From an uncultured Clostridia bacterium (lineage in GTDB: Bacteria > Bacillota > Clostridia > TANB77 > CAG-508): 59,785 nt of DNA. The stretch is from the NCBI GenBank assembly GCA_947589835.1, contig CANQCT010000002.1, positions 1 through 59,785 on the forward strand, given 5' to 3'. The position numbers and the translations under genes are program-made. Of the stretch, positions 5,175-46,421 are shown in pieces. Positions within the stretch are counted from its first letter, which is position 1. Every line of letters begins with the position of its first letter. The notes under the pieces were generated by a model, which saw only the letters and a program-made list of their open reading frames with translations, made no database searches and was not told the origin of the DNA.

Positions 5175-5179
5175 AAAAT

Positions 5180-6509: not shown

Positions 6510-6515
6510 AAAATT

Positions 6516-17760: not shown

Positions 17761-18604
17761 TTACTCTTTTACTAGTTTTCTTAGCCCAAATGTTATAAAG
17801 TAAATTGCTCCTGAAATTAATACAATCATTGGTCCTGTAGGTATATTCCAGTAATAAGATATAATTAAACCAGCTATTCCAGAAAATAAAGAAAATATTA
17901 CCGAAAATAAATGATAGCTTCTCATACTTTTGGCAATGTTTCTACTAGATGCAGCTGGTAAAATAAGTAATGAATTAATTAATAATATTCCTATCCAGCG
18001 AATTGATATCATAACAATAATTGCAATTAATACTACAAAAACATTATCTATTAATTTTGTGTTAACTCCCCTACTTTTTGCAAGTGCCTCGTTTACACTA
18101 AGCACATTTAATTTGTTAAATGTAAAATACCAAAATACGAATACTGCAATAAATGCTAAAAATAAGTATAATATTTCTGTGTTGCTAATGCTTAGTATGT
18201 CGCCTACAAGATAGCTAGAATATTTATTAAAGTTTCCGCCGTGTGGCAAGCATTGCTAAGCCTAAAGCAATTGCGATTGATGAAAATACACTAATAATTG
18301 TATCTGCTCCATAAGTGGTTTTGTTTTTTACAAAATTTAATAATAATGCAAAAACAACTGCAAAGAAAATCATAGAAATATTCATATTAGTTATTCCAAG
18401 TACCATTCCAATTGCAATTCCTGTTAATGCTGAATGACCTAATGCATCTGAGAAAAATGCCATTTTGTTATTTACAATCATAGTTCCTAATATTGCAAAA
18501 ATTGGTGTTGATAGAATTATGGCAATTAGTGCATTTTTCATAAATGTATATTGCATAAAATCAAATGGTAAAATTGTTTCTAATAAATTATATATTAATT
18601 CCAT
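17761..18604 (-). CDS. znuB: Metal (Zn/Mn) ABC transporter permease, ZnuB-like; frame continues only after +1 shift at CGG (18239-18241)
   Basis: Two ORFs (18227-18619 and 17761-18249) together make a colinear ABC-3 family permease. The 0-frame reads ACA CGG CGG AAA CTT TAA. The +1 frame reads ACA c GGC GGA AAC TTT.. (..LAT-GGNFNKYSSYLVGDIL..). Confidence 0.85.
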
Positions 18605-19337
18605 TGTTCTCACTTCCAAAACGTTTTTTAAATTCTAAGCTATTAAATACCTCTTCTGGAGTGCCTTCTTTAATAACTTCTTTATCTAATAAAATTACTT
18701 TATCTGCATATTTTTTAGCTAATTCAAAATCGTGTGATACTAGTAAAATAGACATATCATAGTTTGTTTTTAGGTTATTTACTAGTTCATAAAAATCTCT
18801 TGTGCCATTTTTATCTATGCCTGAAACAGGTTCATCTAATATTAATAGGTTAGGAGCTGGTTTTGTAGCAATTGCTAATAATACTCTTTGAAGCTCTCCA
18901 CCTGATAGATCTCCTATGCTTTTATCTATTAATTTTTCTGCTCCAAATATTTTTAGCTGTTCTTTTATTTCTTGATATATTTTTTTGTCCTTTTTTAAAA
19001 ATACTGGTACATAGCAAATGCATGATGCAAATAAGTCATATACTGTGGTTGGCATATGCTTTTCTATATTAATTGATTGTGGTACATAGCCAATTTTTAT
19101 TCTTTTGGTAATATTTTCTTTTATGTCCATAAAAGTTATGTTTCCTGTGTGTTCTACTTCTCCTAAAATAGCTTTTAGTAATGTAGATTTACCGGCACCA
19201 TTTCTACCAATAATTACGGTTAACTCTCCACAGTGAATGTGAATATTTACATTTTTTAATACAACTTCTTTTCCAAACTTCACACTTATATTATTTATTT
19301 TCGTGCAGTGAAGTCCACAAGCTACTGATTTTTCCAT
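18588..19337 (-). CDS. znuC: Metal ABC transporter ATP-binding protein, ZnuC-like
   Basis: Walker A GRNGAGKST, signature LSGGELQR, Walker B LLILDEP. Confidence 0.9.
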   Translation of the reverse strand: MEKSVACGLHCTKINNISVKFGKEVVLKNVNIHIHCGELTVIIGRNGAGKSTLLKAILGEVEHTGNITFMDIKENITKRIKIGYVPQSINIEKHMPTTVYDLFASCICYVPVFLKKDKKIYQEIKEQLKIFGAEKLIDKSIGDLSGGELQRVLLAIATKPAPNLLILDEPVSGIDKNGTRDFYELVNNLKTNYDMSILLVSHDFELAKKYADKVILLDKEVIKEGTPEEVFNSLEFKKRFGSENNGINI

Positions 19338-22350: not shown

Positions 22351-23239
22351 TTATTCATTTGTTTGAAGCTTTTTTATTTCTTCTTCTGATAAGCCTGTTA
22401 CATTCATAATAACGTCTATTTCTATTTTTCTTTCTAGCATTTTCTTTGCAATCTCTAATTTACCGCTCTAATTTACCTTCTAGCTTTCCATCTCGCTTTG
22501 CTTCATATAATAATTGTTCTTGGTCCATTCTTTCTAGTTCTGCTTTTAATGCCATTCTCCTTAATATATCATCTTGACTTATTTTTTCTAATTCATCTTT
22601 TGCTTCTTTTATATTCTCATTGTTTTCCATAATTTTAGCCACCTCCTTATTTTCAGGGTTTTCTAGAAACATCATCCATTGAAGTACTTCATTTTGTTTG
22701 TTATTTTCGTATTCTTTTATAGCCTTTGGTAGTTCAATTATATCAATTTGTAAATATGGAGTCAATAGTTTAGTTAAATATTCTTCTTCTCGTATTTGCC
22801 ATTTCGTATGGCTTTTTGTTATTTCTTTAAAATCTTCTATTTCATCATCTAATATTATTATACTTATTGTCTTTTTTAAACAACTATATTTATTTCCTAT
22901 TTGTAAATTTGCTGCATACATTTTTGACCAATAGTATAAAAATCTTTCTAACATTTTTTCATGTGAACTTAGCTGTATTTCTATATCACATTCTATGTTA
23001 TCATTTATTACTGCCCTTAAGTCTAGTCTGCCATTTTTATCTTCTGTATTGTCATTTAATAAATCTTTGCTTTTGTCTAATTCTAGGCTATGTACTTTTA
23101 TATTTAGTATGTCTTCTATTAATGCCTTAGTTATACTTTCTTTTCCCCTTGTAAATAACGCTTGAAATACTACATCATTTTTTGGTTGTAATATTCCATT
23201 TTCTTCTTTTGTTTCTTCTGTTAATTGTTTTTTTGTCAT
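22351..23239 (-). CDS. Rpn-family recombination-promoting nuclease / PD-(D/E)XK putative transposase; C-terminus reached only by +1 shift at CGG (22463-22465)
   Basis: The N-terminal KNDVVFQALF..LDLRAV..IECDIEIQL is typical of Rpn/YhgA-like proteins. The 0-frame ends GKLE-CGG-TAA. The +1 frame continues G-KLEIAKKMLERKIEIDVIMNVTGLSEEEIKKLQTNE*, the usual family C-terminal helix-turn-helix tail. Confidence 0.8.
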
Positions 23240-23560
23240 AATTTGTTTTCCTTCCTTTCGCATATTGCATAAAAACTGAATAATATTTTTGGGTCTTAAA
23301 ATATTACTTGGTTTTTTATGCTTTTTTTAAATTTTATATTATTAGCTAGAAGGCTTGTTTTTTTATAGTGCTTTTATAATTTGCTTTTAATTCTTTTTTA
23401 ATATTTTTATTTGGATTTTTAATATTAAGATATACTAAATTATTTTTGATTTTAATATTAAGATATACCTAAATCACTTTTGATTTTTTAAATATTTTAA
23501 ATTATTTTAATAACTAAGTAGCCTATAAATTTTCATAAATTGACTTTAATTTTAATTTAA

Positions 23561-23664
23561 CATATTTTTCGCAGTTTTGAGAGGCCTTTGACTTACACAT
23601 TTTTCCTTAAACTTGCTTACTTTGGTGGGCATTTGAAAAACAAGAAAACTAGTATTATTTAAGT
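23561..23664 (+). repeat. 113-116 nt hairpin repeat family A, degenerate copy 1
   Basis: Shares tttttcgcagttttgagagg ... gggcatttgaaaaacaagaaaactagtattatttaag with the other copies. The left end is degraded. Confidence 0.65.
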
Positions 23665-23842
23665 TTTAACGTAATTATAATTATTATGTAGTAACCATAT
23701 TCTAAGATTAAATAAAGTTTTATTTTAAAAGCATATAATAAATTTGATAAAAATAGCTTGCCTTTCGGCTAAGAATATAATACTTTAATTATATAGCATT
23801 TTTTCTATTTTGCAACATTTTTCGTATGACAAATTTCGACAT

Positions 23843-24046
23843 TCACACTTTTTGCAAATATTCTGCAAAATCTTTTAGTTCTTGTTCTTTTGCATCGTTT
23901 GTTCTTTTTGCTACCTCTTTTGCCATATCTAATATTCCACCTTCACCTAGCACTAGTGTTATAGTTACACCTGCTAGTATTAGCAAGACTACTATGGTTA
24001 CAACTAACGCTATTAACGTAATTCCGCTTGTTTCACTTTTTTTCAT
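23843..24046 (-). CDS. Small prepilin-like protein (N-terminal cleavage/methylation-type hydrophobic segment)
   Basis: MKKSETSGITLIALVVTIVVLLILAGV.. resembles the class III signal/pseudopilin N-terminus but lacks Glu at +5. 67 aa. Confidence 0.5.
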   Translation of the reverse strand: MKKSETSGITLIALVVTIVVLLILAGVTITLVLGEGGILDMAKEVAKRTNDAKEQELKDFAEYLQKV

Positions 24047-24287
24047 TCTCCTATTTCCTCCTCTTATGTTTTTTATTCTTTCTTCTCTTCTATTTTTTTC
24101 TCATACATAACTTTTTTCACATTGACAGTTTTTATGAATTTAATTATTTATTTTTCAATGTGCTGTAAGTTATGTTTTTAGCTATATGAACTAAATATAG
24201 AAAATAATAAAGTGTTAACACTTACAAGTTTACCACAAAAAAATATTAAAATCAATATAATAAATAAAAAATTATGGGGTGGTAAAT

Positions 24288-24548
24288 ATGTCATTGATTA
24301 CAAAATATAATGGTAATATGAATGTAACTGGAAGATTACTAAAAAATTACAGAATAAAAAAGTCTTTATCTTATGAAAAATTATCTGCTAAGTTAGAACT
24401 TATGGGAATTAGTATTCACAAGCAAAGTTTATATGATATTGAGAATAATAAAAGAACTGTAAAGGACTATGAATTATTTGCTATTGCATATATTTTAGGA
24501 ATAGATGTTAATGATTTGTTTGCAGATATAAAAAAAAAGTATAAATAA
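24288..24548 (+). CDS. XRE-family HTH transcriptional regulator
   Basis: ..LLKNYRIKKSLSYEKLSAKLELMGISIHKQSLYDIENNKR is HTH_3-like. ATG at 24288 with a ggggtgg SD. Confidence 0.7.
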   Translation: MSLITKYNGNMNVTGRLLKNYRIKKSLSYEKLSAKLELMGISIHKQSLYDIENNKRTVKDYELFAIAYILGIDVNDLFADIKKKYK

Positions 24549-24587
24549 AAACTACTACCAACACATTAGTTAGTAATAGCTTTTACA

Positions 24588-25238
24588 TTATAAGTCTATC
24601 ATACATGCTTCATATATTTTCTTTTTCATAGTATATTGTTTTTCATTTTTTATAACTAAGAACCATAAGTACATAAGTATTATTATAAAGGCTATGTTAT
24701 GTATGCGTAAAATAACGATGCTTGTTATTATTGTTAGTATTATTACTGTGATTTTTGATACTTTATTTGTTATTCTATAGGCTTCATGTTTTCCTTTTTG
24801 AATATGCACTATTTCGTGCAAAAATCTTCCGCCATCTAATGGGTAAATTGGTAATAAATTAAATATTGCAAGTAATAAGTTTGTGTATATTATTATTGCT
24901 AAGTTTTTATAATGTGATGCTATTAATAAGCAAATAATTGCAATAAATAAATTTGTTACTGGTCCTGCTAATGCAATTATTATTTTTTTAATGCAAAGTT
25001 TGTTTCCATTTTTTATTTTTTTATTATAGTCGTTAGTGTTTATTTTAAAATGGATTTGAAAGCCAAATGGGGTTATTTTAATGTTGTTTGGTTTAAATCC
25101 AAGTACTAGTCCGAATGAATAGGTGGCCTAATTCATGTATTAATGCAAATATCATTAATATGGCATAGATTTTAATTTGTGATGTTAACCAAAACAAAAT
25201 AATAAATAAAAATATTTTTAAGTCTATTTTTATACTCA
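24588..25238 (-). pseudogene. spoIVFB: SpoIVFB-like M50 intramembrane metalloprotease, two frame disruptions
   Basis: The ATG at 25238 (aggaga SD) gives MSIKIDLKIFLFI.., and the frame is then offset by -1 within a T-rich run (about 25192-25215). The next frame carries ..LIHELGHLFI-CGG (25111-25113). After skipping the C it continues GLVLGFKPNNIKITPFGF....LLPIYPLDGGRFLHEIV.. to 24588. Confidence 0.75.
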
Positions 25239-25347
25239 TGCTTTTCTCCTATTAATTAGTAACTTTTATTACTTATAAAGTTTAAACTTATAAATAATAG
25301 AAAACCTAAATTTATAACTGCGTATAAATATATATTATATAACTTTA

Positions 25348-26454
25348 CTAGGTCCAACTTAATATTAATTCTGGGTCTACGGTTCTTTCGCTTCTTCTTA
25401 TTTCAAAGTGCAAATGTGGTCCTGTTGTATTTCCTGTATTGCCAGATAAGGCTATTTTTTGCCCTTTTTTTACTTTATCTCCTTCTTTTACTAGAATTTT
25501 ACTGCAATGTGCATAAATAGTTGTAACATCTTTATTTACTATTTTTACATGTGTTCCGTAGTCTCCAACATTTGAAACTACTGATACAGTTCCTTCCATT
25601 GCAGCAACTACTGGTGTTCCTACTACTACGCCAATGTCTATTCCTTGGTGATTTTCTGATACTATTTCTGTTGGTTCTCTTTTTCCATAGGGTGATGTGA
25701 TTTTAGCTTTTGCTGGAAGGGTCATACTGAAGTTTTGCTTTATATATTCTGCATCTATTTGCATTTGAGTTTTTTGAGTTGTATCTTTTGCTGATACTTG
25801 TACTGTTTTTACATCTTCATTGCTTCCGCCTATGCCAATTTCTTCATTATTTGTAGAAGCTTGCTTACTTTCGCTGTTTTCATTTTCCAAATTTTGTGCT
25901 TGCTCATTATTTTGCTGATTACTGTCACTTTGATTGTTTTCACTATTTTGCTGGTTTTGATTGTTTTCTTCACTATTTTCTTCACTATTTTCGTTACTAT
26001 TTTGCTGAGTATTTTCTCCTTCTTCATTTTGGTTTGCATTTTCTTCTGTATTATTTTCGCTTTGATTATTTTCTTCTTTGTTTTCAGAAGTTTCTTCTTT
26101 GTTCCATAGTTTTGTTAAAAATCCGAATTTATCTTGATTATTTTGAAAAAATTCTCCTACAGAACTCGATATTTGTGCAAAGTTAATGTCTGTGCTTAAA
26201 AATTCTTTGGTTTTATTTAAAACACTTTCAGAGAATATGTAATTGGTTTCTTTTATAAGTGAAAATATAAGATAAATAAATACACAAATTAATATTTGTA
26301 AAATCATTTTTTTGTACAGAGAAAACTGCCTATTTTCTCTTCCTTGTTTTACTTGAGAACTAGGCATTCTAACATTGTTATTATTTAATTTTCTACGATA
26401 ATATATTTCCTCTGCTCTTTTTATTCTTTCTTCTGGAGAAATTATTTTTTCCAC
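25348..26454 (-). CDS. spoIVFA: M23/LytM-domain protein, SpoIVFA-like (upstream partner of spoIVFB)
   Basis: C-terminal M23 motifs HQGIDIG...GNTGNTTGPHLHFEI. One TM segment. A long N/E/Q/S-rich low-complexity linker. Start placed at the GTG at 26454 (gaggtg SD). Confidence 0.7.
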   Translation of the reverse strand: MEKIISPEERIKRAEEIYYRRKLNNNNVRMPSSQVKQGRENRQFSLYKKMILQILICVFIYLIFSLIKETNYIFSESVLNKTKEFLSTDINFAQISSSVGEFFQNNQDKFGFLTKLWNKEETSENKEENNQSENNTEENANQNEEGENTQQNSNENSEENSEENNQNQQNSENNQSDSNQQNNEQAQNLENENSESKQASTNNEEIGIGGSNEDVKTVQVSAKDTTQKTQMQIDAEYIKQNFSMTLPAKAKITSPYGKREPTEIVSENHQGIDIGVVVGTPVVAAMEGTVSVVSNVGDYGTHVKIVNKDVTTIYAHCSKILVKEGDKVKKGQKIALSGNTGNTTGPHLHFEIRRSERTVDPELILSWT

Positions 26455-26580
26455 AAAAATACACCTCTTCCTTTGTAGCAATCTTTTTTTTAATGTATAT
26501 GTTTTTAAGAGGTGTTTTATTCTTAAAATTTTTATAATTTTTTGTTTAATTTTTAGCTTTTTGTTCTTTGCTATATAAGA

Positions 26581-26693
26581 GCTTAAATAGTACTATTTTT
26601 CGCAGTTTTGAGAGGTCCCGTTCTGAGTTACTTCTATGAACTGGCTCCTGCAACGGGCAATTTGAAAAACAAGAAAACTAGTACTATTTAAGC
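26581..26693 (+). repeat. Hairpin repeat family A, copy 2
   Basis: gcttaaatagtactatttttcgcagttttgagaggtcccgttctga...ctgcaacgggcaatttgaaaaacaagaaaactagtactatttaagc. The termini are exact inverted repeats. Confidence 0.85.
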
Positions 26694-26730
26694 TAATAAC
26701 TCTTTTCAATCAAAATCTTTACATTTATAA

Positions 26731-27102
26731 CTATATTATAAACTGAATTATAGCAATAAGTATTAAACCCGCTACTAATATATGGTTTACAGTTTTTAAT
26801 TTTTTACATTTCTTTTTTAATGTTTGAATAGATTGATTTTCCATTTTGTTTTTATTTTCAATTTTAGATATATAGTCTGATATTAACATTTGAGCTTCTT
26901 TTATAATGTAATCTTTTGACTTTTGCTCTTGTTCTTCTATGTTTTTAGCTTGATCTCGCTCTTTACTTTGCTTTTTTGATTTATCTATTAACTCTAGTTT
27001 TTGTATTTTTTGATTTTCTTTTAACACTACAATTGCCTCTTCTACTATGTTAGATGGCAAATCTTTTAACACAACAATATTTTTCAAACTACTTGTATCC
27101 AT
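26731..27102 (-). CDS. Hypothetical coiled-coil protein with C-terminal TM anchor
   Basis: Start at MDTSSLKN (ggaggg SD). Lys/Glu-rich. The C-terminal LVAGLILIAIIQFII is hydrophobic. Confidence 0.5.
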   Translation of the reverse strand: MDTSSLKNIVVLKDLPSNIVEEAIVVLKENQKIQKLELIDKSKKQSKERDQAKNIEEQEQKSKDYIIKEAQMLISDYISKIENKNKMENQSIQTLKKKCKKLKTVNHILVAGLILIAIIQFII

Positions 27103-27232
27103 TTTAAATTCCCTCCACTTTTTATTTCTATTAATAAAATTTTTTCCAGTTTTTATTTTTTTATACAATATTTTTAATACAAGTAATTTTTATTTTATTG
27201 TGCAATATTCTTTATTAAGCAATTTAAATGTT

Positions 27233-27664
27233 TTAATTAAAATTGTAGTCTTTAATATAATTTGATACTTTTTCTGCAAGCATATCAATTTTTTGTATAT
27301 TCCAGTTTGGTAAATAGTTTTGGGCTCCTATTACAGTTTTTATATTTAAACTAGCTGGAAAGTAAAACCCGCTTCCATAGGCGTTTCCTATTTTTATGCC
27401 CCCTAATGTTACAAAGCTTTTACCAATATGTTCCCTTTTTCCAAATGCAGAATCTATTAATATTATTTGATTGTTATTATACTTTTTTAAATGGCGACTT
27501 AGAATTTGTGCATTTTTTAAATGCACAGGAAATTCCATTGTGCCATATATTTTTACATTGGAGTATGTTTGTAATTTGCTTTTTAATTTTTGCCCAACTC
27601 TTGGGCCAAATGAGTCTGTTAAGATTTTATTTGTTCCTATACAGACAAATATATATTCTTCCAC
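27233..27664 (-). CDS. yyaC: Spore protease YyaC
   Basis: MEEYIFVCIGTNKILTDSFGPRVGQKL.. matches the YyaC family N-terminal motif (CIGTD....D..GP..G). Confidence 0.8.
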   Translation of the reverse strand: MEEYIFVCIGTNKILTDSFGPRVGQKLKSKLQTYSNVKIYGTMEFPVHLKNAQILSRHLKKYNNNQIILIDSAFGKREHIGKSFVTLGGIKIGNAYGSGFYFPASLNIKTVIGAQNYLPNWNIQKIDMLAEKVSNYIKDYNFN

Positions 27665-27754
27665 TAATTTTGCTTACCTTCTTATATATAATTTAGATTT
27701 TTTTTAATTGGATATACCTATAAAACCATTCTAATTTTTATATATTTATCTGTA

Positions 27755-28009
27755 TTAATCTTTATTAAAAGAAATGACTATTTTTACATTTTTATTGTTT
27801 TTATATTTTTTTATAATATCTTCTGAAAAGCCTGCCACTTCGTTTGAAATTATAATTGTATCATAGTTTTGTTTTATTAAGTTTTTCATCGTTTCATCTG
27901 TTTTTTCTAAATCAGATAAAGAAAAAACATCAAATCCTAAAGCTTGTGGCAAACGAAAACTTTTGTTATCTTTTTCATATTTTATCCAAGATATTTTCAT
28001 TTTTACCAT
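27755..28009 (-). CDS. Hypothetical small protein (weak V-type ATPase subunit F-like pattern)
   Basis: 84 aa ORF. ..GFDVF......E..E.....I.QNYDTIIISNEVA resembles subunit F topology, but there are no other V-ATPase genes nearby. Confidence 0.4.
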   Translation of the reverse strand: MVKMKISWIKYEKDNKSFRLPQALGFDVFSLSDLEKTDETMKNLIKQNYDTIIISNEVAGFSEDIIKKYKNNKNVKIVISFNKD

Positions 28010-28173
28010 TAGTCCTTTTAGTTACAAATTTGCTTAAAAAGTTTTTAAGCATCGTAACTAAGCTTAGTTTTTGATGTTTTTATAATTTTTATTCACTTTT
28101 ATTATTCTTATTCACTATTGTTTTATATTATTTTTTGCTGGTTTTAGCACTCTCTTCTAAGTGTGTAAAGCAA

Positions 28174-37658: not shown

Positions 37659-39416
37659 CTATACTTCGTCACTACTGTATCTTGCTTCTGTGTACCATGC
37701 ATTGACTTTATAGTATTTTCCTAAAAAGCTTGGTTGATACCAATCTAGTTCATAAGTTGGCTCTTGAACTACCTCTCCGTTTTGATTTATTACTCCCCAT
37801 TTGCCATCATCTTTTATACCTGCAAATCCATATTCGTTAAAATCTGTAATCATTTCATAGTTTGCTTGTACTTTTATATTTCCTTCTCTATCAACAAATA
37901 CCCATTTATTATTTATATTTTTTGCTAAAAGGGTATTGTTTGGAAATACATCTTTTGCTTCTAATTTGTTTCCGTTTTCATCATAGTATAAAAAATTATT
38001 TTCTGACGCTAACATAATGTATTTTTTAGGATTTATGCTAGAAGCCTTATATTCTCCAATTACTGCATTATTCATACTAGCTACTTTTTCTATTTTCATA
38101 TTGTATAGCTCAATAGTTTTTGTATCTGACATTTCTGCTTGAATTAAATTTGTGTCATTAAATTTAAAAATACTTGTGTATTTAATTTCTACTACAACTT
38201 CACCTTTACTATTAATAATTCCATTTTTTCCTTCTTTAGCAACTATAAAATAGTTTCCTGGTAAGTATCCAATGTATGAATAGTTGTCATCTATAATTTT
38301 ATTTCCGCTAGCATCTACCACAGTATATATATCGTTTTTATCTATTGCAATATAATAATTTGGATTATCTGTTTGTGTTATACTAATACTTTCAGTTTGT
38401 ATTTGATTTCCTTGTAAGTCAAACATAAGGCTTTCATCACCTTTAATAGCATTTAAGTAAATTCCTCCAGATAGAATTCTATCATATTCTGAATGTAAAA
38501 TTGTTTGGCCTTCTTTTTTAACAACTCCTTGCTTTCCATTACGTGTTGTAATGAAAATATCGTCAACAGCATAATAAGAAATTTCTTGGTATTCATAATT
38601 TAATATTACTTGTTTGTTTTTTAATAATCCAGCTTGTCCTTCTTTATAGGCTATAAAATAAATGTCTTTTTCACTAGGAATTTGTGTAACTCTTTTTAGC
38701 TGAGTATATTCTGTATTTAGTATGGTATGTCCGCGAAAATCTATATAACCATATCTAAATCCGTTTTCTGTTTTTTTGCTTACAATGAAGCCTGTTGTTT
38801 TATTTTTAGTGGTTTCATTATAGTAATTATCAGAAGTGATTGTTTCGTATTCATTTTTGATAATTACTTTTCCTTTCATATTAATAACTCCAGCTTTTCC
38901 ATCTTTTTTAACTAAAAATGTTCCTTCTTTATAATTAATACTGCTTATTTCATCATAAATTGGTTTTGTTACAACTTTTCCTTCTAAAGTAATTAAACCA
39001 TATTTTCCATCTTTTTGATATGATAGTACACTTTTTTCATAAGGGCTAGAATCTATGTTAGTGCTAATAGATATTGCTTGTACTCCTTCATAATCTGTAA
39101 ATATTTGTGTGCCACTATCGTTAAATACTGTTGTTTCGTAAGTTTTGTTTTCTTGGTTATAGCTACTTACACATATAAAAACTGGTTTAGAAGGGTTTGG
39201 AATTTGAATAGCTATATAATTAGGCTCAATAATAACATTTCCGTTTTTATCAATAACGCCATACTTAGATTTTTCAGTAAGTACAAAATAGTTATATTCT
39301 TTAATTTCTTCTATGTCATATTGCATACTTAATTCGTTTATTACTATAATAGCTGTAACTACTGCTATTAGTAGAATAATAACTGCTAAAATAATCCATT
39401 TTAATTTTCCCTTCAT
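37659..39416 (-). CDS. WG/KWG-repeat membrane-anchored protein
   Basis: N-terminal TM segment, then many repeats of the form ..KYGVIDKNGNVIIEPNY.. / ..KAGVINMKGKVIIKNEY.. / ..KWGVINQNGEVVQEPTY. Confidence 0.75.
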   Translation of the reverse strand: MKGKLKWIILAVIILLIAVVTAIIVINELSMQYDIEEIKEYNYFVLTEKSKYGVIDKNGNVIIEPNYIAIQIPNPSKPVFICVSSYNQENKTYETTVFNDSGTQIFTDYEGVQAISISTNIDSSPYEKSVLSYQKDGKYGLITLEGKVVTKPIYDEISSINYKEGTFLVKKDGKAGVINMKGKVIIKNEYETITSDNYYNETTKNKTTGFIVSKKTENGFRYGYIDFRGHTILNTEYTQLKRVTQIPSEKDIYFIAYKEGQAGLLKNKQVILNYEYQEISYYAVDDIFITTRNGKQGVVKKEGQTILHSEYDRILSGGIYLNAIKGDESLMFDLQGNQIQTESISITQTDNPNYYIAIDKNDIYTVVDASGNKIIDDNYSYIGYLPGNYFIVAKEGKNGIINSKGEVVVEIKYTSIFKFNDTNLIQAEMSDTKTIELYNMKIEKVASMNNAVIGEYKASSINPKKYIMLASENNFLYYDENGNKLEAKDVFPNNTLLAKNINNKWVFVDREGNIKVQANYEMITDFNEYGFAGIKDDGKWGVINQNGEVVQEPTYELDWYQPSFLGKYYKVNAWYTEARYSSDEV

Positions 39417-39456
39417 ACCCTTTTTCTTCCTTTCATTTTTTATATATTTCTTTTGT

Positions 39457-40773
39457 TTATTCTTCAGGTTCTTCTATTTTTTCTTGTCCGTTTTTACATA
39501 TTTTAACCCATTGTATTCTTTTATCTTCATATTTTTCAATGTGATATGTTAATTGCTCATCTTCAATGGTAGGATTTTCATTTTCTTCAGGTAATCTGCC
39601 TAGTTTATCTATTAAATACCCTGATAGTGTTTCATAGTCTCCTTCTGGAATTTTTATATCTAAAATTCTTTCTAATTCATAAAGGCTCATATTTCCTTCT
39701 ACTAAGTATGTGTTGTTATCAATTTTTTTGTATTCTACTTCTACTTCATCGTACTCATCAAATATATTGCCTACTAGTTCTTCTAAAATGTCTTCCATTG
39801 TAAGTAAACCAGAAGTTCCGCCATATTCATCTACAACTATTGCCATTTGCATTTTATTAGTTTGTAGTTCTTTAAATATTTCATCTATTGGTTTTGTTTC
39901 TGGAACAAAATATGCTTCTCTTAAAATGTTTTTTATTTCAATTTTTTCTCCTGAACTAACAAATTTTAAAATATCTTTTAAAAATAAAATGCCTTTAATA
40001 TCGTCTATTGTTTCTTCATATACGGGTATTCTGCTATATTTGTATTCATCTATTTCATCTAGAATTTCATATAAATTTTGATTTATTTCAATTGCATACA
40101 TTTCTGTACGGTGTGTCATAATTTCTGAAGCAACAATGTCATTTAATTCGAATACATTGTTAATTAATTCTTTTTCTGCTTCTTCTATTGAGCCTTTTTC
40201 TTCACCTTCATCTACCATCATTTTTATTTCTTCTTCAGTAACAACTTCTTCATCTTGTTCACTTACTCCAAATATTTTAGAAATTACAGTAGTTGCACTT
40301 GTTAATAATTTTACAAAAGGTGCTGTTAAAATAGATATTGTTCTAATAGCTCCAACTGTACCAAATGAAATTTTTTCATAATATTTCATTGCTAATCTTT
40401 TAGGAACAAGTTCACCGAATACAAGTGTAAAAAATGAAAGTATTAATGTAATAATTACTATTGAAATGCTTCTCCATATTGAAATACTTAAAAATGGCAT
40501 TAAATTATTTAATGCTGGTGCTAATACATCTGCAAATGCATCTGATGCAAAAGCACTTGATAAAAATCCTGCTAAGGTAATTCCTATTTGGATTGTTGCT
40601 AAAAATTTGCTTGGGTTTTTTAGCATTTTTTGAATTTGTTTTGCTTTTTTATTTCCTTCCCTAACTTGTTTTTCTATTTTGGCATCATTTAATGATATAA
40701 AAGCGATTTCTGTTGCTGCAAAATAGGCATTAAGTAAGATTAAAATTGCTAAAAAAAGTATTTGTGAAATCAT
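39457..40773 (-). CDS. HlyC/CorC (CNNM/DUF21-CBS-CorC) family transporter
   Basis: DUF21 TM region, a CBS pair and a CorC_HlyC C-terminal domain (..YETLSGYLIDKLGRLPEE..). Start at MISQILF (aaggaga SD). Confidence 0.85.
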   Translation of the reverse strand: MISQILFLAILILLNAYFAATEIAFISLNDAKIEKQVREGNKKAKQIQKMLKNPSKFLATIQIGITLAGFLSSAFASDAFADVLAPALNNLMPFLSISIWRSISIVIITLILSFFTLVFGELVPKRLAMKYYEKISFGTVGAIRTISILTAPFVKLLTSATTVISKIFGVSEQDEEVVTEEEIKMMVDEGEEKGSIEEAEKELINNVFELNDIVASEIMTHRTEMYAIEINQNLYEILDEIDEYKYSRIPVYEETIDDIKGILFLKDILKFVSSGEKIEIKNILREAYFVPETKPIDEIFKELQTNKMQMAIVVDEYGGTSGLLTMEDILEELVGNIFDEYDEVEVEYKKIDNNTYLVEGNMSLYELERILDIKIPEGDYETLSGYLIDKLGRLPEENENPTIEDEQLTYHIEKYEDKRIQWVKICKNGQEKIEEPEE

Positions 40774-40900
40774 ATATTCTCCTTTTTGGTTTGTGACCGC
40801 ATTATATGGAATAATTATATATTTTCTCTGCTTGTATGTCAATAAATGTGCCATATTTTAATTAAGAAACCGTACTAGTTAATAGTCATAATTATATTAA

Positions 40901-41016
40901 CGCTCGAATAGTACTATTTTTCGCAGTTTTGAGAGGTCCCGTTCTGACTTTACTTCTCTGAGCCTACTACTGCAACGGGCAATTTGAAAAACAAGAAAAC
41001 TAGTACTATTCGAGCG
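40901..41016 (+). repeat. Hairpin repeat family A, copy 4
   Basis: cgctcgaatagtactatttttcgcagttttgagaggtcccgttctga...ctgcaacgggcaatttgaaaaacaagaaaactagtactattcgagcg. Confidence 0.85.
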
Positions 41017-41074
41017 GCTTAGCTATAAATCCATTAATTAGTAACTAGAAAACGTTACTAGTTAGTGTTTTTAC

Positions 41075-41095
41075 CCGAATAGTACTATTCGAGCT
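41075..41095. repeat. Core-less palindrome identical to the fused ends of family A (cgaatagtactattcg)
   Basis: cccgaatagtactattcgagc is the left and right termini of copy 4 without the ~95 nt core. A similar site lies at 32162-32185 (cttaactagtactatttaag). Confidence 0.7.
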
Positions 41096-41121
41096 TTAAT
41101 ATAATTAACTTATATACTAAC

Positions 41122-42387
41122 TTAAAAGCCTGTTGCAGGAAGTCTCTTATTGCTAAAATGCTGTTCTTTAGGTTCTTCTGGAACTACTTTTTCTCCTTCG
41201 TCTATAAAATTATCTACCTTAATTTCTACTATTTCTTGATTAGTAGTATCTACTTTAATTAATTCATTGTATCCATAATAACCGTTTGGAGCAATTGCTT
41301 CTTCTAGATAGTATGTTCCAGGTGCAAGGCCTGAAATTTCTATAATGCCTTCTTTATTTGTTATTAATTCAGAATAAAGTATGGATTTATTTTGGTCTAA
41401 TAAATTAAATACTGCTCCTTGCAATGGTTTTTGGCTATCTCCATCTTGTTTTAAAACTTTTATTTTTGTTGTATTTATTTCATAATTTTGATTATAAATG
41501 CCTTCTACTTTTTCATATTCTCCTGCTGTAATAGCGTAATCTTCATATTTGCCTTCTAAATCTTTTGCATGATAGATTGGATATGTTTGCAAAGAAGATG
41601 TTGCATGAATAGCAAATTCCCCAGAAATAGGTAAACTTGATACAGGTATTACAATTTTAAATTTTTCGTTTGGTAAAAAGTCAGGATCTGATACATTATT
41701 CATTCTTCTTGCTTCAACTTTTGAAAGATTTTTTCCTGTAAGGCAAATTTCATAGTTTTTGTTTGGCGCTGATGAAGTTACAGTATAAGTTTTGCTAACA
41801 TAATTTCCATCTACATCATCTACTTTCCACTTTGAAGCTTCTTTAATTTCTAAGGTTCCTATTGTTTTAGATTTTTCGGCTTTTCTAGCTTTTTCAATAA
41901 TTGATTTTGCAGCAGCTACAGTAGATGCATCTTCTTCATTTACCTGAGTTAATTTTTTTAAATCATAATTATAATAAGCATCATATACTGCTATTTGCGT
42001 TGCTGCATAGGCTCTTTCTATTGTGCTACAGCCTAAATCTTCTGCACTCACAAAAGGATATCCATTAGTAATTGCTCTCCAAACTTTTTGATTAGTTACT
42101 AAGCCATCTATTCTTACTTTATAGTCGTTAGATTCTGAAAAACCAGTTTTTTCTTTATTTAAGCCGTAGGCTGGATATTCAATATCTTTTTTATAAAAAA
42201 CAAGTTCCATTTCAATTGGGCTACCTTTATATTTAAAGTATGTAGCTTGTCCTTTAGAATATAAATCTGGGTCGTCATCTGGTAGTACAGTAGCATTTGT
42301 TTTACTTTGCCATAAGAAAATTGAAAAATTAGCTATTATCATTGTTATTATCATTAGTATGTATATTATTTTTTTTGTTTTAAACAT
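41122..42387 (-). CDS. Sortase-substrate surface protein: thioester-domain-like N-terminal part + CnaB/SpaA-type domain, LPATG motif but no membrane anchor
   Basis: Signal peptide, a TQIAVY motif (TQxA[IV]W-like) and a CnaB-type segment ..GAVFNLLDQNK...TNKEGIIEISGLAPGTYYLEEAIAPNGY. It ends ..KRLPATGF*. Confidence 0.75.
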   Translation of the reverse strand: MFKTKKIIYILMIITMIIANFSIFLWQSKTNATVLPDDDPDLYSKGQATYFKYKGSPIEMELVFYKKDIEYPAYGLNKEKTGFSESNDYKVRIDGLVTNQKVWRAITNGYPFVSAEDLGCSTIERAYAATQIAVYDAYYNYDLKKLTQVNEEDASTVAAAKSIIEKARKAEKSKTIGTLEIKEASKWKVDDVDGNYVSKTYTVTSSAPNKNYEICLTGKNLSKVEARRMNNVSDPDFLPNEKFKIVIPVSSLPISGEFAIHATSSLQTYPIYHAKDLEGKYEDYAITAGEYEKVEGIYNQNYEINTTKIKVLKQDGDSQKPLQGAVFNLLDQNKSILYSELITNKEGIIEISGLAPGTYYLEEAIAPNGYYGYNELIKVDTTNQEIVEIKVDNFIDEGEKVVPEEPKEQHFSNKRLPATGF

Positions 42388-42464
42388 TTTTTTCCTCCTT
42401 GTATATGTTTTCTATTTTTTTAGTAATTTTTTCATAAATTACTTTTATTTTTTAACATATTTTT

Positions 42465-43373
42465 TTATTTTATTATATTATTTGCAACTTCTACTGCTTG
42501 CACGCATCTTCTGTAATCTTTTCTATTTTCTTCACAAGTAATTAAAGTAATGCGGTTATCTTTTGTACTTTGCAAATAACTCCAATCGGTTTGCAGAATA
42601 ACTTTGTTAGTTTGTACTTTATACACTCTTTTATTATTTGCAGTAGTATAAATTATTTCATCTCCTATTTCTAGATTTTTTATATCTTGAAAAAAGTTAC
42701 ATTTATAGCCTCTGTTATGTGCTGCTAAGCCTACATTTCCTTGCCATTTGCTAGTTTCTTCAAAATGCCCAATAGATGTTAATAAAACTGATGATGTAAT
42801 TCCTTCTGATATATGTGCATCTAAGTTTATTTTAGGTATTTGAATTCTCCAAGTTTTTTCTTTATTTTCTTCAAGCACCTGTGTTTGAGTTTTTTCGTTT
42901 GTGTTTTGTTCTAAATTTGGCTCTTGCGAAGAATTTGATTGTAAATTATTTTCTTCTAAAGTAGTTTGATTTGTGTTAAATTCTTTGCTAGGTTCATTTG
43001 CATTATTTGTGTTATTTTGATTAATATTTTCAATATTAGTAGTGTTTTGTGTTAAAGTATTTGTAGAATTTTTATTAGATTTTTCTAATAATTTTGTTGA
43101 TAATTTTAAAGTATTTTCACTAGTGTTTAATAAAGCTACATTTAGCTTGTTTTTTAATAGAAAATCGTTTTGAGTATTGTTTTCAGAATTTTCGTTATAA
43201 TAGTTTGGAACTTTTATTGAATAATTTGAAATTACTCTAGTATACAAATTATTATCTGGATTTTTTTCTTTTGAATTTTGAAAATATGAATAAATAATAC
43301 AAAATGATACAAACAAAGTTAGAGCCAGAACAAAGCTTAAAAAGCTTACATTTCTTTTTGTATAATTAATCAC
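42465..43373 (-). CDS. Sortase (TLxTC catalytic motif)
   Basis: ..VGLAAHNRG.. and ..RITLITCEEN..R.. motifs. An N-terminal TM segment. An Asn/Gln/Thr-rich low-complexity linker. Confidence 0.85.
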   Translation of the reverse strand: MINYTKRNVSFLSFVLALTLFVSFCIIYSYFQNSKEKNPDNNLYTRVISNYSIKVPNYYNENSENNTQNDFLLKNKLNVALLNTSENTLKLSTKLLEKSNKNSTNTLTQNTTNIENINQNNTNNANEPSKEFNTNQTTLEENNLQSNSSQEPNLEQNTNEKTQTQVLEENKEKTWRIQIPKINLDAHISEGITSSVLLTSIGHFEETSKWQGNVGLAAHNRGYKCNFFQDIKNLEIGDEIIYTTANNKRVYKVQTNKVILQTDWSYLQSTKDNRITLITCEENRKDYRRCVQAVEVANNIIK

Positions 43374-43739
43374 ATATACTGCACCTGCCTTTTTTAATAT
43401 TGAATTTAGTTTTGAAATTTAATTTAAGAAATTAATTTTTCATATTTAGAATAATAATGTAAGTTATTGCTGAATTAATTTTTTATGCTTAAAATAATAA
43501 TGCTTAAAATTATTAAGGATTTAATTTTATAATAAAAATGCCTTTGATAAAATTTTATTGATATAAGGTAAATTAATATTGCTTAATATGAATAATTTTG
43601 AACTTTCTTATAAATTAAAAAAATTGCAATTTTTAAAACTGCAATTATAATACACCAATTTTATTAATTTGTAAAGAACTTTTCATCGACTTATTTCGAC
43701 ATTTGATACTGTATAATATGCATAATTAATTGCATTATG

Positions 43740-43853
43740 GCTTGAATAGTACTATTTTTCGCAGTTTTGAAAGGTCCCGTTCTGAACCTTCTTCTTTGAA
43801 CTTTACTCCTGCAACGGGCATTTGAAAAACAAGAAAACTAGTACTATTCAAGC
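43740..43853 (+). repeat. Hairpin repeat family A, copy 5 (first unit of a 162-bp tandem duplication)
   Basis: gcttgaatagtactatttttcgcagttttgaaaggtcccgttctgaacc...ctgcaacgggcatttgaaaaacaagaaaactagtactattcaagc. Confidence 0.85.
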
Positions 43854-43901
43854 TATTAACTATAAAACCATTAATTATTAACTGACTTTTGCTAATTAAT
43901 T

Positions 43902-44015
43902 GCTTGCATAGTACTATTTTTCGCAGTTTTGAGAGGTCCCGTTCTGAACCTTCTTCTTTGAACTTTACTCCTGCAACGGGCATTTGAAAAACAAGAAAAC
44001 TAGTACTATTCAAGC
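43902..44015 (+). repeat. Hairpin repeat family A, copy 6 (second unit of the tandem duplication)
   Basis: Nearly identical to copy 5. The 48-bp spacer (tattaactataaa.ccattaattattaactgac.tttgctaattaattgc) is also duplicated and overlaps the histidine kinase stop. Confidence 0.85.
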
Positions 44016-44057
44016 TATTAACTATAAAGCCATTAATTATTAACTGACATTTGCTAA

Positions 44058-45572
44058 TTAATTGCTCAAATTAATATCAAAATAAAATTCTACACCATTT
44101 TCCTTATTTGATACCCCATAACCATTTTTATAATTAGTTTGAATTGCTTTTACAATAGAAAGCCCTATTCCGCTTCCGCCATTTTCTCTATTTCTAGAGC
44201 CATCAACTTTGTAAAATCTACCCCAAACTCTATCTAAATCATCTTTGTCAATATTTTTTCCAGTATTAAATACAAATGCTCTTGCTTTATCGCCATTTTT
44301 CTCTATTCTAATTTGAATTTGTTTTTTTCCATCTGTGGTGCTTTCCGCATTTTTTATTGCATTTGTAAAGTAATTTGTTACAATTTGGTCAATGTAAAAG
44401 TCATCTGCATATACATAAACAGGCTCAGTTTGATTAAAAATAACTTCTATGCTATTTTCTTCAAGCATAACATTACATTTTCTAATTACTTCTTTTATTA
44501 GTTCATTTAAATCAAATTTTTTATCATTAAACTCTCTTTTACCATATTCTAGTTTCATTAATTCTAAAAGTTGTTTTACTAGCTGATCCATTTTATTAGA
44601 TTCATCTAAAATTACTTCTGCATAAAATTTTCTAGATTCTTCATCTTTGTTTACATTTTCTATTAAGCCTTCTGCATAGCCTTGTATTAAAGCTATTGGA
44701 GTTTTTAGCTCATGCGATACATCTGAAATAAATTGTTTCCTCATTTCATCAATTTTAGATTTTTCTTCAATATCCTTTTCTAGCTCTTTATTGTTTTCTT
44801 TTAATTGATTAATGGTAGATTCTAGCTTATCTGACATAGTATTAATATTTTTTCCAAGCTCGTTTATTTCATCATCTGAATCTGTAATTCTATATTTTTT
44901 GCTAAAGTCTAGCCTTGCCATTTGATTTGTAATTTCGCTCAGCTGTGATATAGGGTTTGTAAATTTGCGTGTAATAAATGATATTGCAAAAGATGCTATA
45001 ATAATAGTAAGAAGTCCTATTAAAATTAATGCTTCATTAGATATTCTAACGCTTTCTTCTATTGGTGCTATTGGAATTCTAATATATAGGTTATATTCAT
45101 TTACAAGCTTTCCGCTTAATAATATGTAATTTAAGTTATTTGTAGAATCTGTTATTTTTGTAATTTGCATATTTTCATCTTTATAAATTAAATTTGGACC
45201 TTTTATTTGTTCTTGCATATTTAGCAAATTAGTAATTTTTTCTACATTTTCTAGTAAGTCTCTATTAGTTGAAAACACTATTAAATTTGTATCTGCTTGT
45301 ATTAAAATATCAAAATTATTTTTATATGCAATTTTTTTAAGCTCGGTTTCTAAATTTTTGTCCAAGCTTGGATTTGCATAATAATCATTAATTTTTTGAT
45401 ATACTTCTTTAATAGTTTTTGTTTTGCTATACATATAAAAATTTTCTAGTACTAGCCTATTTATAGCAATTAAACAAAATACTAAAAACATAATAAAAAT
45501 ACAAAACGTAATAAATAGCTTAAATCTTACTGACTTAAATTTTTCTTTTATTTTTTTCATATTTTTGTTCAT
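44058..45572 (-). CDS. Two-component sensor histidine kinase
   Basis: Two TM segments, HAMP, the H-box FISDVSHELKTPI, and N/G boxes (..NAIKN.., ..GGSGIGLSIVK..). Confidence 0.9.
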   Translation of the reverse strand: MNKNMKKIKEKFKSVRFKLFITFCIFIMFLVFCLIAINRLVLENFYMYSKTKTIKEVYQKINDYYANPSLDKNLETELKKIAYKNNFDILIQADTNLIVFSTNRDLLENVEKITNLLNMQEQIKGPNLIYKDENMQITKITDSTNNLNYILLSGKLVNEYNLYIRIPIAPIEESVRISNEALILIGLLTIIIASFAISFITRKFTNPISQLSEITNQMARLDFSKKYRITDSDDEINELGKNINTMSDKLESTINQLKENNKELEKDIEEKSKIDEMRKQFISDVSHELKTPIALIQGYAEGLIENVNKDEESRKFYAEVILDESNKMDQLVKQLLELMKLEYGKREFNDKKFDLNELIKEVIRKCNVMLEENSIEVIFNQTEPVYVYADDFYIDQIVTNYFTNAIKNAESTTDGKKQIQIRIEKNGDKARAFVFNTGKNIDKDDLDRVWGRFYKVDGSRNRENGGSGIGLSIVKAIQTNYKNGYGVSNKENGVEFYFDINLSN

Positions 45573-46306: not shown

Positions 46307-46421
46307 TTCATACTCCTTTTCAAAAGCATATTTTTTATTCACATTCATTATACATTATAACTATCAATTATGTCTAGAGTGTGAAGAATTTGTTAATAGT
46401 TAATAGTTATAATTGAATTTT

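Follow-up and report, generated by a model that had tools for sequence, protein, structure and literature searches.

Palindromic interspersed repeats have been well studied in Proteobacteria (REP/BIME and REPIN-RAYT) and in a few Firmicutes (BOX, RUP and bcr1). To our knowledge, they are almost unknown in the uncultured gut Clostridia which dominate herbivore microbiomes. Here we describe a hairpin repeat found in a stretch of 59,785 nucleotides (nt) from an uncultured Clostridia bacterium (contig CANQCT010000002.1; the window hereafter). It represents a previously undescribed, clade-specific family of long-hairpin intergenic repeats in uncultured gut Clostridia, a description of which was found neither in Rfam nor in the literature searched. 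The family is dispersed, non-coding and palindromic in two layers; its stems keep their pairing, its asymmetric scaffold is invariant and its apex hypervariable. Among the described systems, REPINs go with a cognate Y1 HUH transposase (RAYT) gene, which is single-copy and has the repeats on either side. The REP unit is a short (20–40 nt) palindrome, one end of which carries a conserved tetranucleotide, GTAG or CGTC (PMC3733652), and the REPIN, an inverted doublet with a spacer, forms a hairpin and is the replicative unit (PMC3116915). Y1 HUH enzymes read one hairpin strand of IS200/IS605 ends and of REPs, on the lagging-strand template (PMC5027513, PMC6006769, PMC3333891). At inverted repeats, template switching is known to homogenise the arms and invert the spacer (PMC8604942), and hairpins can arise and be maintained by it in the absence of selection (PMC8794818).

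With a G+C content of 27%, the window is part of the chromosome of an anaerobic, spore-forming Firmicute. Its genes include nrdD, spo0A, spoIIID, yabG, rpsF-ssb-rpsR and recO, besides those for a two-component system and for a pair of sortase and pilin; almost all genes lie on the − strand. Its DNA is 78–88% identical to that of three rabbit-gut metagenome-assembled genomes (MAGs) in which the hairpin family occurs, and for this reason the host is a sister species of these MAGs. Exact-protein look-ups in rabbit-gut assemblies returned the window's own strain and strains 96–98.5% identical to it (L numbers below refer to the sequences compared); around 55 kb only the window's own strain was returned.

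Six hairpin copies, five intact and one degenerate, lie in the gaps between − strand genes, all of them on the + strand. An original prediction, made from the letters of the window, had already proposed six copies in the same orientation. Repeat finding, motif search and a covariance model (built from 69 family members and scanned over the whole window with filters off) all agree on these six and no more, with the ends shifted slightly. Direct-repeat finding groups all six places, and the 19-mer TTTTCGCAGTTTTGARAGG has six matches in the window, all on the + strand, against 0.02 expected. The five full copies score 124–138 bits with the covariance model and the degenerate copy 62 bits. When folded, the intact copies form one long hairpin each (z-scores of −4 to −7 relative to shuffled sequences); the degenerate copy does not. 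The copies and their immediate flanks are as follows.

23549–23664, + strand: degenerate copy; left outer stem lost and apex decayed, inner motifs and right stem kept; 62 bits with the covariance model and 52.7 bits with nhmmer.
23665–23695, + strand: right outer arm of the degenerate copy (TTTTAACGTAATTATAATTATTATGTAGTAAC), with a terminal motif match at 23683–23695.
26581–26693, + strand: intact copy of 113 nt with decayed arms; filled orthologues in two other species (L048, L071).
29513–29672, + strand: intact copy (29543–29656), its outer arms in "class B" orientation; L048 and L071 have filled orthologues.
40871–41045, + strand: complete two-layer unit, "class A", with left arm 40871–40901, hairpin 40902–41015 and right arm 41016–41045; L033 lacks the whole unit at its orthologous site.
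43737–44060, + strand: tandem duplication with a period of 162 nt (hairpin plus 48 nt of arm and spacer), hairpins at 43740–43853 and 43902–44015, found by repeat finding and the covariance model.

The structure was derived from an alignment of 69 copies read on the + strand. A typical copy is a hairpin of 114 nt in which a perfect 15-bp stem encloses an asymmetric core of 85 nt with an apex of ~36 nt at its tip. The outer stem is a perfect inverted repeat (GCTnnAATAGTACTA / TAGTACTATTnnAGC) with the foot GCTnnAATAG / CTATTnnAGC. Next inwards come a U-C mismatch, the first of two invariant 5-bp helices (TTTTC/GAAAA), a GCA/AA internal loop, the second of these helices (GTTTT/AAAAC) and an invariant 7x7(8) internal region (GARAGGT / CA(A)TTTG), in which tandem G-A pairs plus G-U, A-U and G-U pairs are possible on the + strand. 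The invariant internal-loop motifs of the core read TTTTCGCAGTTTTGARAGGT / GGGCA(A)TTTGAAAAACAAGAAAAC. The innermost helix, CCCGTT/AACGGG, has 6 bp and covaries. The apex is nearly unstructured (about −1 kcal/mol), consists of 70% pyrimidine on the + strand and is conserved only in its central CTTCTTTGAA. Altogether, about 60 nt of the asymmetric scaffold are invariant across the copies.

Conserved stems, a variable apex and end changes that stay complementary had all been predicted, and the alignment bears this out: 97.7% of the outer-stem cells are paired in the 69 copies and 10 of the 15 pairs have changed on both sides. For the whole named structure, 98.5% of the cells are paired and 13 pairs have changed on both sides, a level which none of 500 shuffles reached and no slid register came close to; the covariation is thus strong. 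The inner helix passes through a compensatory series in distant MAGs, from CCGTT/AACGG to CCAAG/CTTGG to CCGAG/CTCGG. Outside the assumed G-U helix, 27 G-T wobbles were counted against 10 A-C, and the + strand folds more stably in 58 of the 69 copies, the G-U wobble positions favouring this strand; one G/A polymorphism stands opposite a U. Covariation of the left variable segment of the apex with the G/A polymorphism in GARAGG was considered and rejected on inspection, since the two tandem copies of the window differ at R while sharing the same apex.

The layers evolve at different rates. Between orthologues, 3.2% of the positions differ in the scaffold, 6.2% in the outer stem and 23.7% in the apex, i.e., the scaffold changes ~7 times more slowly than the apex. 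Apex differences between orthologues are bimodal (0–1 or 8–13 positions). Apart from the tandem pair, no two non-orthologous copies within one genome have an identical apex; halves of apexes turn up again elsewhere in new combinations, as though sequence had been copied patchwise from one copy to another. Transitions and transversions are about equally frequent in the apex (60:64), and apex mutation by single-strand cytosine deamination, for which this ratio is not diagnostic, was dropped as a candidate. The apex also tolerates insertions, as a diverged copy in a Clostridium sp. MAG (L061, 1694–1849) has an extra hairpin of ~45 nt inserted in it.

A second, outer palindromic layer was missed in the original prediction. 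Most copies are embedded in conserved arms of 25–30 nt per side with the outer ends GTTACTAGTTAAT...ATTAACTAGTAAC. The arm sequences to the left (..GTTACTAGTTAATAGTTATAATTACATTAAA) and to the right (GGGTTAACTATAAAACCATTAACTAGTAAC..) of the hairpin are imperfect inverted repeats of each other, and the whole unit, bounded by outer inverted repeats of 13 nt, reaches ~175 nt. The hairpin is found both ways relative to the arms, in 35 and 17 cases. Its core lies at the exact centre of the palindrome AATAGTACTATT, which with one mismatch allowed occurs 13 times in the window against 0.84 expected, and is flanked by TAGTACTA. As TAGTACTA is itself palindromic, it forms both an inverted and a direct repeat, and the apparent 8-bp duplication is expected in any hairpin of such shape. 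Palindromes and arms without a core occur at five further places, given below without strand.

41054–41121: core-less unit in inverted orientation adjoining the filled unit; arm 41054–41072, 22-bp palindrome 41073–41094 (AATAGTACTATT at 41078–41089) and arm 41095–41121; identical in the 98%-identical strain L083.
32134–32215: core-less unit; arm 32134–32163, palindrome 32164–32185 (GCTTAA-C-TAGTACTATTTAAGC) and arm 32186–32215; a weak covariance-model hit at 32164–32224.
13714–13806: decayed core-less unit; arm, half-eroded palindrome GCTCGAATAGCACTATT and decayed arm, flanked by an imperfect 14-nt direct repeat.
46392–46412: arm remnant (GTTAATAGTTAATAGTTATAA); at the orthologous site, L033 holds a full unit and L083/L084/L086 a fragment of an Rpn gene.
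52644–52688: arms-only remnant without palindrome or core (GTTACTATATA..GC..TTTAATATAATTATTATATAGTAAC), found by motif and sequence inspection.

Core-less palindromes had been predicted at 41075–41095 and 32162–32185 and were taken as apparently empty sites equal to the fused ends. The former is present with slightly different ends. The latter exists too but is not equal to the fused ends: its extra C is found in all filled copies immediately before the right-hand TAGTACTA, at the right end of the core. As this C has been kept, the site derives from a filled copy by deletion and does not represent a virgin target. Most core-less palindromes would likewise be deletion products rather than empty targets. 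What had been called a solo left end at 13741–13762 turned out to be part of the decayed core-less unit, the palindrome of which is whole in L112. A recurrence of gttttgagagg at 32745–32755 was found as stated (GTTTTGAGAGG, then CTATTTAAC on the other strand); it is not scored by the covariance model and may be a decayed fragment of the family. In the window, three core-less units stand against five filled ones, and in other species one against ~8 extra filled copies in ~470 kb.

Two side observations concern the arms. At 41032–41067, the outer arms with which the filled unit and its core-less neighbour face each other form a 14-bp hairpin followed by TTTTT on the + strand, which a scan flagged as terminator-like. 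A second dispersed repeat family of ~135 nt, "module X", is often found directly beside the outer arms of hairpin units (32005–32140 in the window with a partial copy at 59389–59433; L083 7450–7581; L024 6516–6649; L052, L073, L001, L016 and L015); its sequence includes a GC-rich block (GGTGCGTGGCGG) and an internal hairpin of its own (ATATATGTTTTTTC..GAAAAAACATAT). Strain L083 has this module inserted beside the inverted hairpin copy.

Further copies, a search for which had been suggested with the original prediction, were found outside the window. A scan with the left motif, using one genome per species, gave at least 73 loci, on which a profile search was then run. About 60 of these loci come from four "uncultured Clostridia" rabbit-gut MAGs (CANQTQ, CANQUT, CANQAI and CANQPV) and a few from mouse-gut or other Clostridia MAGs; the rest are chance matches. 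At least 67 full copies are present in the four related rabbit-gut MAGs, plus diverged copies, and the copy number is at least 10–20 per MAG. Diverged copies were also found in five further, more distant MAGs (L028, L032, L050, L061, L066, L069). When IMG/VR was scanned with both conserved motifs, and JGI metagenome contigs with the right-hand one, nothing beyond chance hits came up, and BLAST of the full unit against phage and plasmid collections gave no match. In Rfam, the whole window had no match at gathering thresholds, and the segment 40800–41200 had only chance-level hits (E above 3) at permissive thresholds.

Comparison of orthologous sites revealed that in-place inversion of the core, gain and loss of the whole unit, tandem duplication, truncation and core-less forms all occur. 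Five pairs of filled and empty sites were obtained for the whole unit. The unit is present in L070/L041 and absent from L001, and present in L046 and absent from L060. The segment 40871–41121 of the window, with its filled and its core-less unit, has nothing at the corresponding site of L033, which itself has a filled unit at 5034 where the window has only an arm stump at 46412. The core-less unit at 13714–13806 is present in the window, L111 and L112 and absent in L103-type strains, where the gap is bounded by the imperfect 14-nt direct repeat. The unit gained or lost across species is the whole ~175 nt including the arms, and among the sites compared there is no orthologous pair of palindrome only and palindrome plus core; filled and empty sites, the comparison of which had been suggested with the original prediction, were found for the unit and not for the core alone.

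Exact inversion of the core was found in L035, a fourth species, relative to L027/L058/L020 from three species: with identical flanks and stems, L035 has the reverse complement of the inner 85 nt, and the apex is the same. In L037, the whole unit including the arms is inverted relative to L026/L042. A further inversion lies downstream of the histidine kinase gene, where the window has its tandem pair. Only one copy, in the window orientation, is present at this site in strain L088 and in species L033, and the strains L083/L084/L086, from three samples and 96–98% identical to the window, have a single copy with an inverted core. The outer stems of this inverted copy are perfectly complementary (GCTTGCATAG/CTATGCAAGC), whereas the pair in the window is mismatched; it also has a different apex and an extra 150-nt module alongside. 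Altogether, the orientation differs in only 2 of ~13 orthologous groups, and independent samples of one strain type agree on it (three assemblies each way). Replacement of the apex is seen at other sites as well. Between L070 and L041, the apex differs at 10 of 25 positions within flanks that are 97–98% identical, and between the window and L083 (98% identical), 6 of 16 apex positions differ in a filled copy beside 130 nt which include the core-less unit and show no difference at all. Among orthologues as well as among strains, core and apex have diverged much further than the flanks.

An orientation bias relative to genes, another point raised by the original prediction, is pronounced. Where the flanking genes are co-directional, the core is opposed to them in 40 cases and has the same direction in 4 (about 28:4 with orthologues merged by hand); ten further copies lie between divergent and five between convergent genes. 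For the arms, the corresponding ratio is only 23:12, and the bias therefore belongs to the core and not to the arms. This means that the better-folding + strand is antisense to the flanking genes in ~90% of the cases. The distance from the stem to the stop codon of the upstream gene has a median of ~39 nt, of which ~30 nt are arm, so that the units start ~0–20 nt after the stop codon, and the next gene starts ~110 nt from the element. Third-codon-position GC skew, considered at the four exceptional loci for replication strand versus transcription strand, was near zero and noisy.

We give a probability of roughly 55% to the following reading: the repeats form a non-coding, nested palindromic family of REPIN/MITE-like type (MITE, miniature inverted-repeat transposable element), which is reshaped by hairpin-driven inversion, deletion and exchange between copies, and the core of which serves as the recognition module of a strand-specific protein. 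The long hairpin or cruciform would drive the rearrangements through template switching and slippage during replication. Template switching would homogenise the stems and invert the spacer; slippage across the hairpin would delete the sequence between the palindromic direct repeats TAGTACTA, leaving "fused ends", and would also give tandem copies; and switching to another copy would produce mosaic apexes by patchwise copying. Template switching and slippage cannot explain ~60 invariant asymmetric nucleotides at old orthologous sites, nor a ten-to-one bias, and on these grounds a protein partner reading one strand is proposed as the simplest account. The scaffold would persist as the recognition module of this putative trans-acting protein, which would propagate or use the element as a single-stranded hairpin and for which an IS200/REP-type HUH enzyme may serve as a model. 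A strand-specific step coupled to replication or transcription would then explain why it is the core that runs counter to its neighbouring genes about 10 out of 11 times, and not the arms. If the genes are co-oriented with replication, the − strand would be exposed on the lagging-strand template, and the conserved 7x7 region would be an open internal loop there.

Several points weigh against this reading. Present-day mobility is unproven, as no recent burst is visible and identical dispersed copies do not occur in the sequences compared. The L083 allele combines inversion with a different apex and is not explained by a simple intramolecular template switch. Repeats flanking whole units are an 8-nt AAAAAAAT in L070/L041 and the imperfect 14-nt repeat at 13714–13806, the other cases being uninformative, so that target-site duplications are only suggestive and equally compatible with deletion. 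The near-invariant scaffold at old orthologous sites fits a host-level function, as RNA or DNA, at least as well as transposition competence. The absence of a transposase from the window, claimed at the outset, was upheld: no transposase or recombinase was found with Pfam among the 30 window proteins, which are housekeeping proteins plus one Rpn (PDDEXK_2) pseudogene. A tblastn search of 0.8 Mb with IS608 and IS200 TnpA queries, a weak test, gave no match. No longer element with the same ends was seen; the truncated copies (L073, L036, L055, L061) are simple truncations or carry an apex insertion, and lie beside ordinary genes, e.g., the end of cmk in L073. Moreover, all comparisons of copies rest on short-read MAG or metagenome assemblies, in which the assembler may misassign variable apexes among repeat copies.

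As to these assemblies, the key alleles were reproduced independently (L083/L084/L086; L098/L099/L100), and core orientation should be resolved correctly since the perfect 15-bp repeat is shorter than the usual k-mers. Independent assemblies stop in or next to hairpin copies (L080–L082 at their position 1, window 29573; L085/L087 at their end, window 43974; L098/L099 at their start, window 43866), so the family fragments assemblies, and the tandem pair is spanned by the window's own assembly only.

The same observations can be read in other ways. Strong covariation, invariant internal loops and a scaffold that changes slowly at orthologous sites would suit a structured RNA, either a cis element in intergenic or 3′ untranslated mRNA (a stabiliser, a processing site or a protein-binding site) or small RNAs with a scaffold and a variable, pyrimidine-rich targeting loop. 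The start of the units close behind the stop codon, the strong bias relative to transcription, the CU-rich apex of the + strand on its scaffold, and the better fold of that strand through G-U wobbles, with the G/A polymorphism opposite a U, fit this proposition. However, the best-folding strand is the one that is antisense to the genes, and the mRNA-sense strand has A-C mismatches at the positions of the + strand G-U pairs. A promoter and terminator consensus scan found none inside the copies, the arms holding only −10-like AT-rich hexamers. The Rfam search gave nothing even at permissive thresholds, the unstructured apex evolves faster than the flanks and shows no sign of a conserved target, and dozens of copies stand beside unrelated housekeeping genes. 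Furthermore, covariation alone does not show RNA function because template switching also gives compensatory changes and spacer inversion, without any need for selection (PMC8794818). The original prediction had offered a hairpin under selection for pairing as one of its two interpretations; the covariation and the slow scaffold agree with it, but template switching can mimic the former, and a function as RNA is, in our judgement, doubtful. A dedicated invertase that flips the 85-nt core between the 15-bp inverted repeats and thereby changes the expression of neighbouring genes would account for exact in-place inversion at two sites. Many sites have one inverted repeat in common, as is the case in the Bacteroides Mpi and Clostridioides RecV regulons. 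But the orientation is fixed within strain types, which makes rapid phase variation unlikely, and differs in so few orthologous groups; neither a promoter in the core (consensus scan) nor an invertase among the 30 window proteins was found, and the inverted allele also differs in sequence, which a flip does not cause. Such a phase-variable switch is very improbable.

The other interpretation in the original prediction was a MITE-like element that inserts into the centre of a pre-existing palindrome and duplicates its target. Worked out further, a core of ~91 nt, acting as mobile cassette, would enter the centre of the palindrome AATAGTACTATT in the middle of the outer unit, duplicate TAGTACTA, excise so that the palindrome is restored, and re-enter either way by means of a transposase or of a site-specific recombinase that acts on the symmetric site. 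Each of the two interpretations accounts for some of the observations, but neither suffices. Part of the second stood up, as the family is dispersed and non-coding with presence/absence polymorphism, and its core lies centrally between the TAGTACTA repeats in both orientations relative to the arms (35:17). Three states are indeed seen (core +, core − and core-less), core-less units are about as common as filled ones in the unbiased sequence of the window (3 vs 5), and both Rpn-adjacent rearrangement junctions described below fall 1–2 nt from the palindrome centre. The main reason why the cassette deserves consideration is the histidine-kinase site, at which one strain type has a different core allele in opposite orientation within the same arms. 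Against it stand the lack of any palindrome-only/filled orthologous pair, the inclusion of the arms in the unit that is gained or lost, the palindromic nature of TAGTACTA, by which the duplication is expected anyway, the core's terminal C at 32164, and the rarity of core-less units in other species. No enzyme was found, and a hairpin element is missing from the 3 kb around two other Rpn loci, which have ends of their own. We consider the cassette rather unlikely. A bolder version takes the 85-nt core as a self-contained hairpin cassette with an invariant scaffold and a fast-evolving, possibly programmable apex, which a strand-specific enzyme would insert, excise, invert and exchange at AATAGTACTATT and which selection would keep at its loci. 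This version is distinctly improbable; if true, it would amount to a new site-specific single-strand recombination or guide-like system in Firmicutes, with a logic analogous to attC/IntI or IS200-REP/RAYT and unrelated sequence. Finally, integron-like attC sites, i.e., folded single-stranded sites that delimit gene cassettes, bear a superficial likeness to the family, being imperfect hairpins of ~60–140 nt in which the stems are structurally conserved, some bases are unpaired and the apex varies; they also share one orientation and lie directly behind genes. Yet the copies are scattered on many contigs among syntenic housekeeping genes (nrdD, the region upstream of rpsF, spo0A, fba, cmk), the neighbouring genes are unchanged whether the element is present or absent, the stem foot has no RYYYAAC/GTTRRRY boxes, no integrase is present, and ~60 nt of invariant sequence are unlike attC. 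An attC identity is effectively refuted by this genomic context, and its probability is close to nil.

Genes and reading frames near the repeats were also considered as candidates. The only long open reading frame (ORF) over the repeats, of 92 aa at 43735–44013, exists only through the tandem copy, and the A insertion in GGGCA(A)TTTG breaks every frame and destroys a short ATG ORF; coding potential was rejected. A gene between an inverted pair of copies in L059 was considered as transposase and rejected, as it encodes fructose-bisphosphate aldolase. The Rpn family of PD-(D/E)XK proteins (PDDEXK_2 + HTH_Rpn_C) deserves mention because of its location. An apparently frameshifted gene lies at 22375–23263 (− strand) of the window, other Rpn loci were found in L083 (4413–4805), L092 (175–289), L101 and L102, and the gene is highly multi-copy in the clade with 990 homologues, many of them on contigs of 1–3 kb. 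At two intergenic hot spots, the hairpin unit and the Rpn gene are alternative alleles. Upstream of rpsF, the window has its Rpn pseudogene next to the truncated copy, and L092 holds a full unit in that place. At the second spot, which is bordered by the SPL gene and that of the response regulator, a full unit is found in L033, a piece of Rpn in L083 and only an arm stump in the window. Both Rpn rearrangement junctions lie within 1–2 nt of the palindrome centre. A link between Rpn and the hairpin was nevertheless rejected: tblastn found no Rpn gene in the 73 element loci compared, and the two other Rpn loci have shared ends of their own and no hairpin element nearby. Any such link is unproven, and coincidence or a shared hot spot would account for it.

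Some features of the window lie outside the repeats. In the 5′ part of nrdD (30938–31318), 56 substitutions relative to contig L079 from another sample, the only ones over 6.4 kb, all fall within 380 nt; this cluster is the signature of a short imported recombination tract. Intergenic tandem arrays of four ~39-nt units (35979–36146) and three 42-nt units (56297–56427) lie upstream of − strand genes. The segment at 4853–5203 is duplicated at 6187–6538, and that at 5703–6086 at 7332–7714 (286 nt at 100% identity, the others at 74–93%); they surround PIN-domain ORFs (5585–5920 and 7211–7654) on either side of spoIIID (6617–6934) and look like paralogous toxin-type cassettes. At 17761–18619, an ABC-3 (ZnuB-type) permease gene is split into two overlapping ORFs (18227–18619 and 17761–18249) and only a 125-aa product is called in other assemblies, which makes it a probable frameshifted pseudogene.

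The significance of the family, in the reading we favour, is that outcomes predicted for long hairpins are seen side by side in natural strains and sister species, namely arm homogenisation, exact inversion of the spacer, deletion to a fused palindrome, tandem duplication and patchwise exchange. It offers a clean system for telling selection on structure from template-switch mutation, and the ~60 invariant asymmetric nucleotides together with the ten-to-one orientation bias point to a protein partner and a strand-specific process. In practical terms, the elements break short-read assemblies at predictable places and could serve as strain markers.

It remains to set the family beside the known systems. 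Three of these share single features with it. Quasipalindrome template-switch mutagenesis (PMC8604942, PMC8794818, PMC7202029) yields perfect complementarity, apparent compensation and exact inversion, as in L083, where the stems are perfected along with the inversion; it is, however, a mutational process and not an element family, and gives no account of dispersal, invariant scaffold, orientation bias or apex replacement. Invertons, invertible promoters flipped by Mpi, RecV, FimB/E or Hin-type recombinases, also have a short segment between perfect inverted repeats in both orientations, with one repeat common to many sites, but here no promoter was found inside, no invertase nearby, the orientation is fixed within strains and the segment is only 85 nt and itself a hairpin. 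The attC sites are likewise foldable as single strands, with conserved structure, unpaired bases and a variable terminal structure, but the present elements lie among syntenic core genes with no cassette array, no integrase and no R/L boxes.

The closer parallels are REP/BIME and REPIN-RAYT (TnpA-REP, Y1 HUH; PMC3116915, PMC3333891, PMC6006769, PMC3733652) and the bacterial MITEs. Like the former, the family consists of dispersed extragenic palindromes that form long hairpins in single-stranded DNA or RNA and mosaics of nested or adjacent modules, it shows vertical persistence, retention at orthologous sites and decay to singlets and remnants, and a strand-specific mechanism on single strands would explain its orientation bias. 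Unlike REPs, it is AT-rich, 114–175 nt long, resides in a Firmicute and is not built of 20–40 nt units; no GTAG/CGTC tag stands at the hairpin foot in the 69 copies, GTAG being found only in a few arm variants (..ATGTAGTAAC). Its hairpin comprises two inverted halves and a spacer, but the halves are not free-standing REPs, and in place of a cloud around an abundant master sequence each copy has its own apex on ~60 invariant nucleotides. No RAYT gene was found among the 30 window proteins (Pfam) or, in a weak test, in 0.8 Mb (tblastn). Bacterial MITEs such as Correia/NEMIS of Neisseria, RUP and BOX of Streptococcus, bcr1 of the Bacillus cereus group and ERIC/RU (reviewed in PMC3184786) are likewise non-coding elements of 100–200 nt with terminal inverted repeats, intergenic and often just downstream of genes, with presence/absence polymorphism, predicted folding and, in some of these families, orientation bias and compensatory changes. 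The present family has terminal inverted repeats (15 bp, and 13 nt in the outer layer), a length of 114–175 nt, no conserved ORF, and filled and empty orthologous sites. In contrast to MITEs, it has no known parent insertion sequence and no clear target-site duplication; an autonomous parent with the same ends and a transposase was not found, and the Rpn gene units have different ends. It further differs in its two-layered build, where inversion and exchange affect the inner core independently of the arms, and in the extreme contrast of invariant scaffold and hypervariable apex. Taken together, the family works like a REPIN/BIME or a bacterial MITE, lacks the tag and the unit size that define REPs and shares the features of MITEs only in part; its interest lies in the nested architecture, in the natural record of hairpin-driven rearrangement and in the combination of scaffold, apex and core-specific bias.

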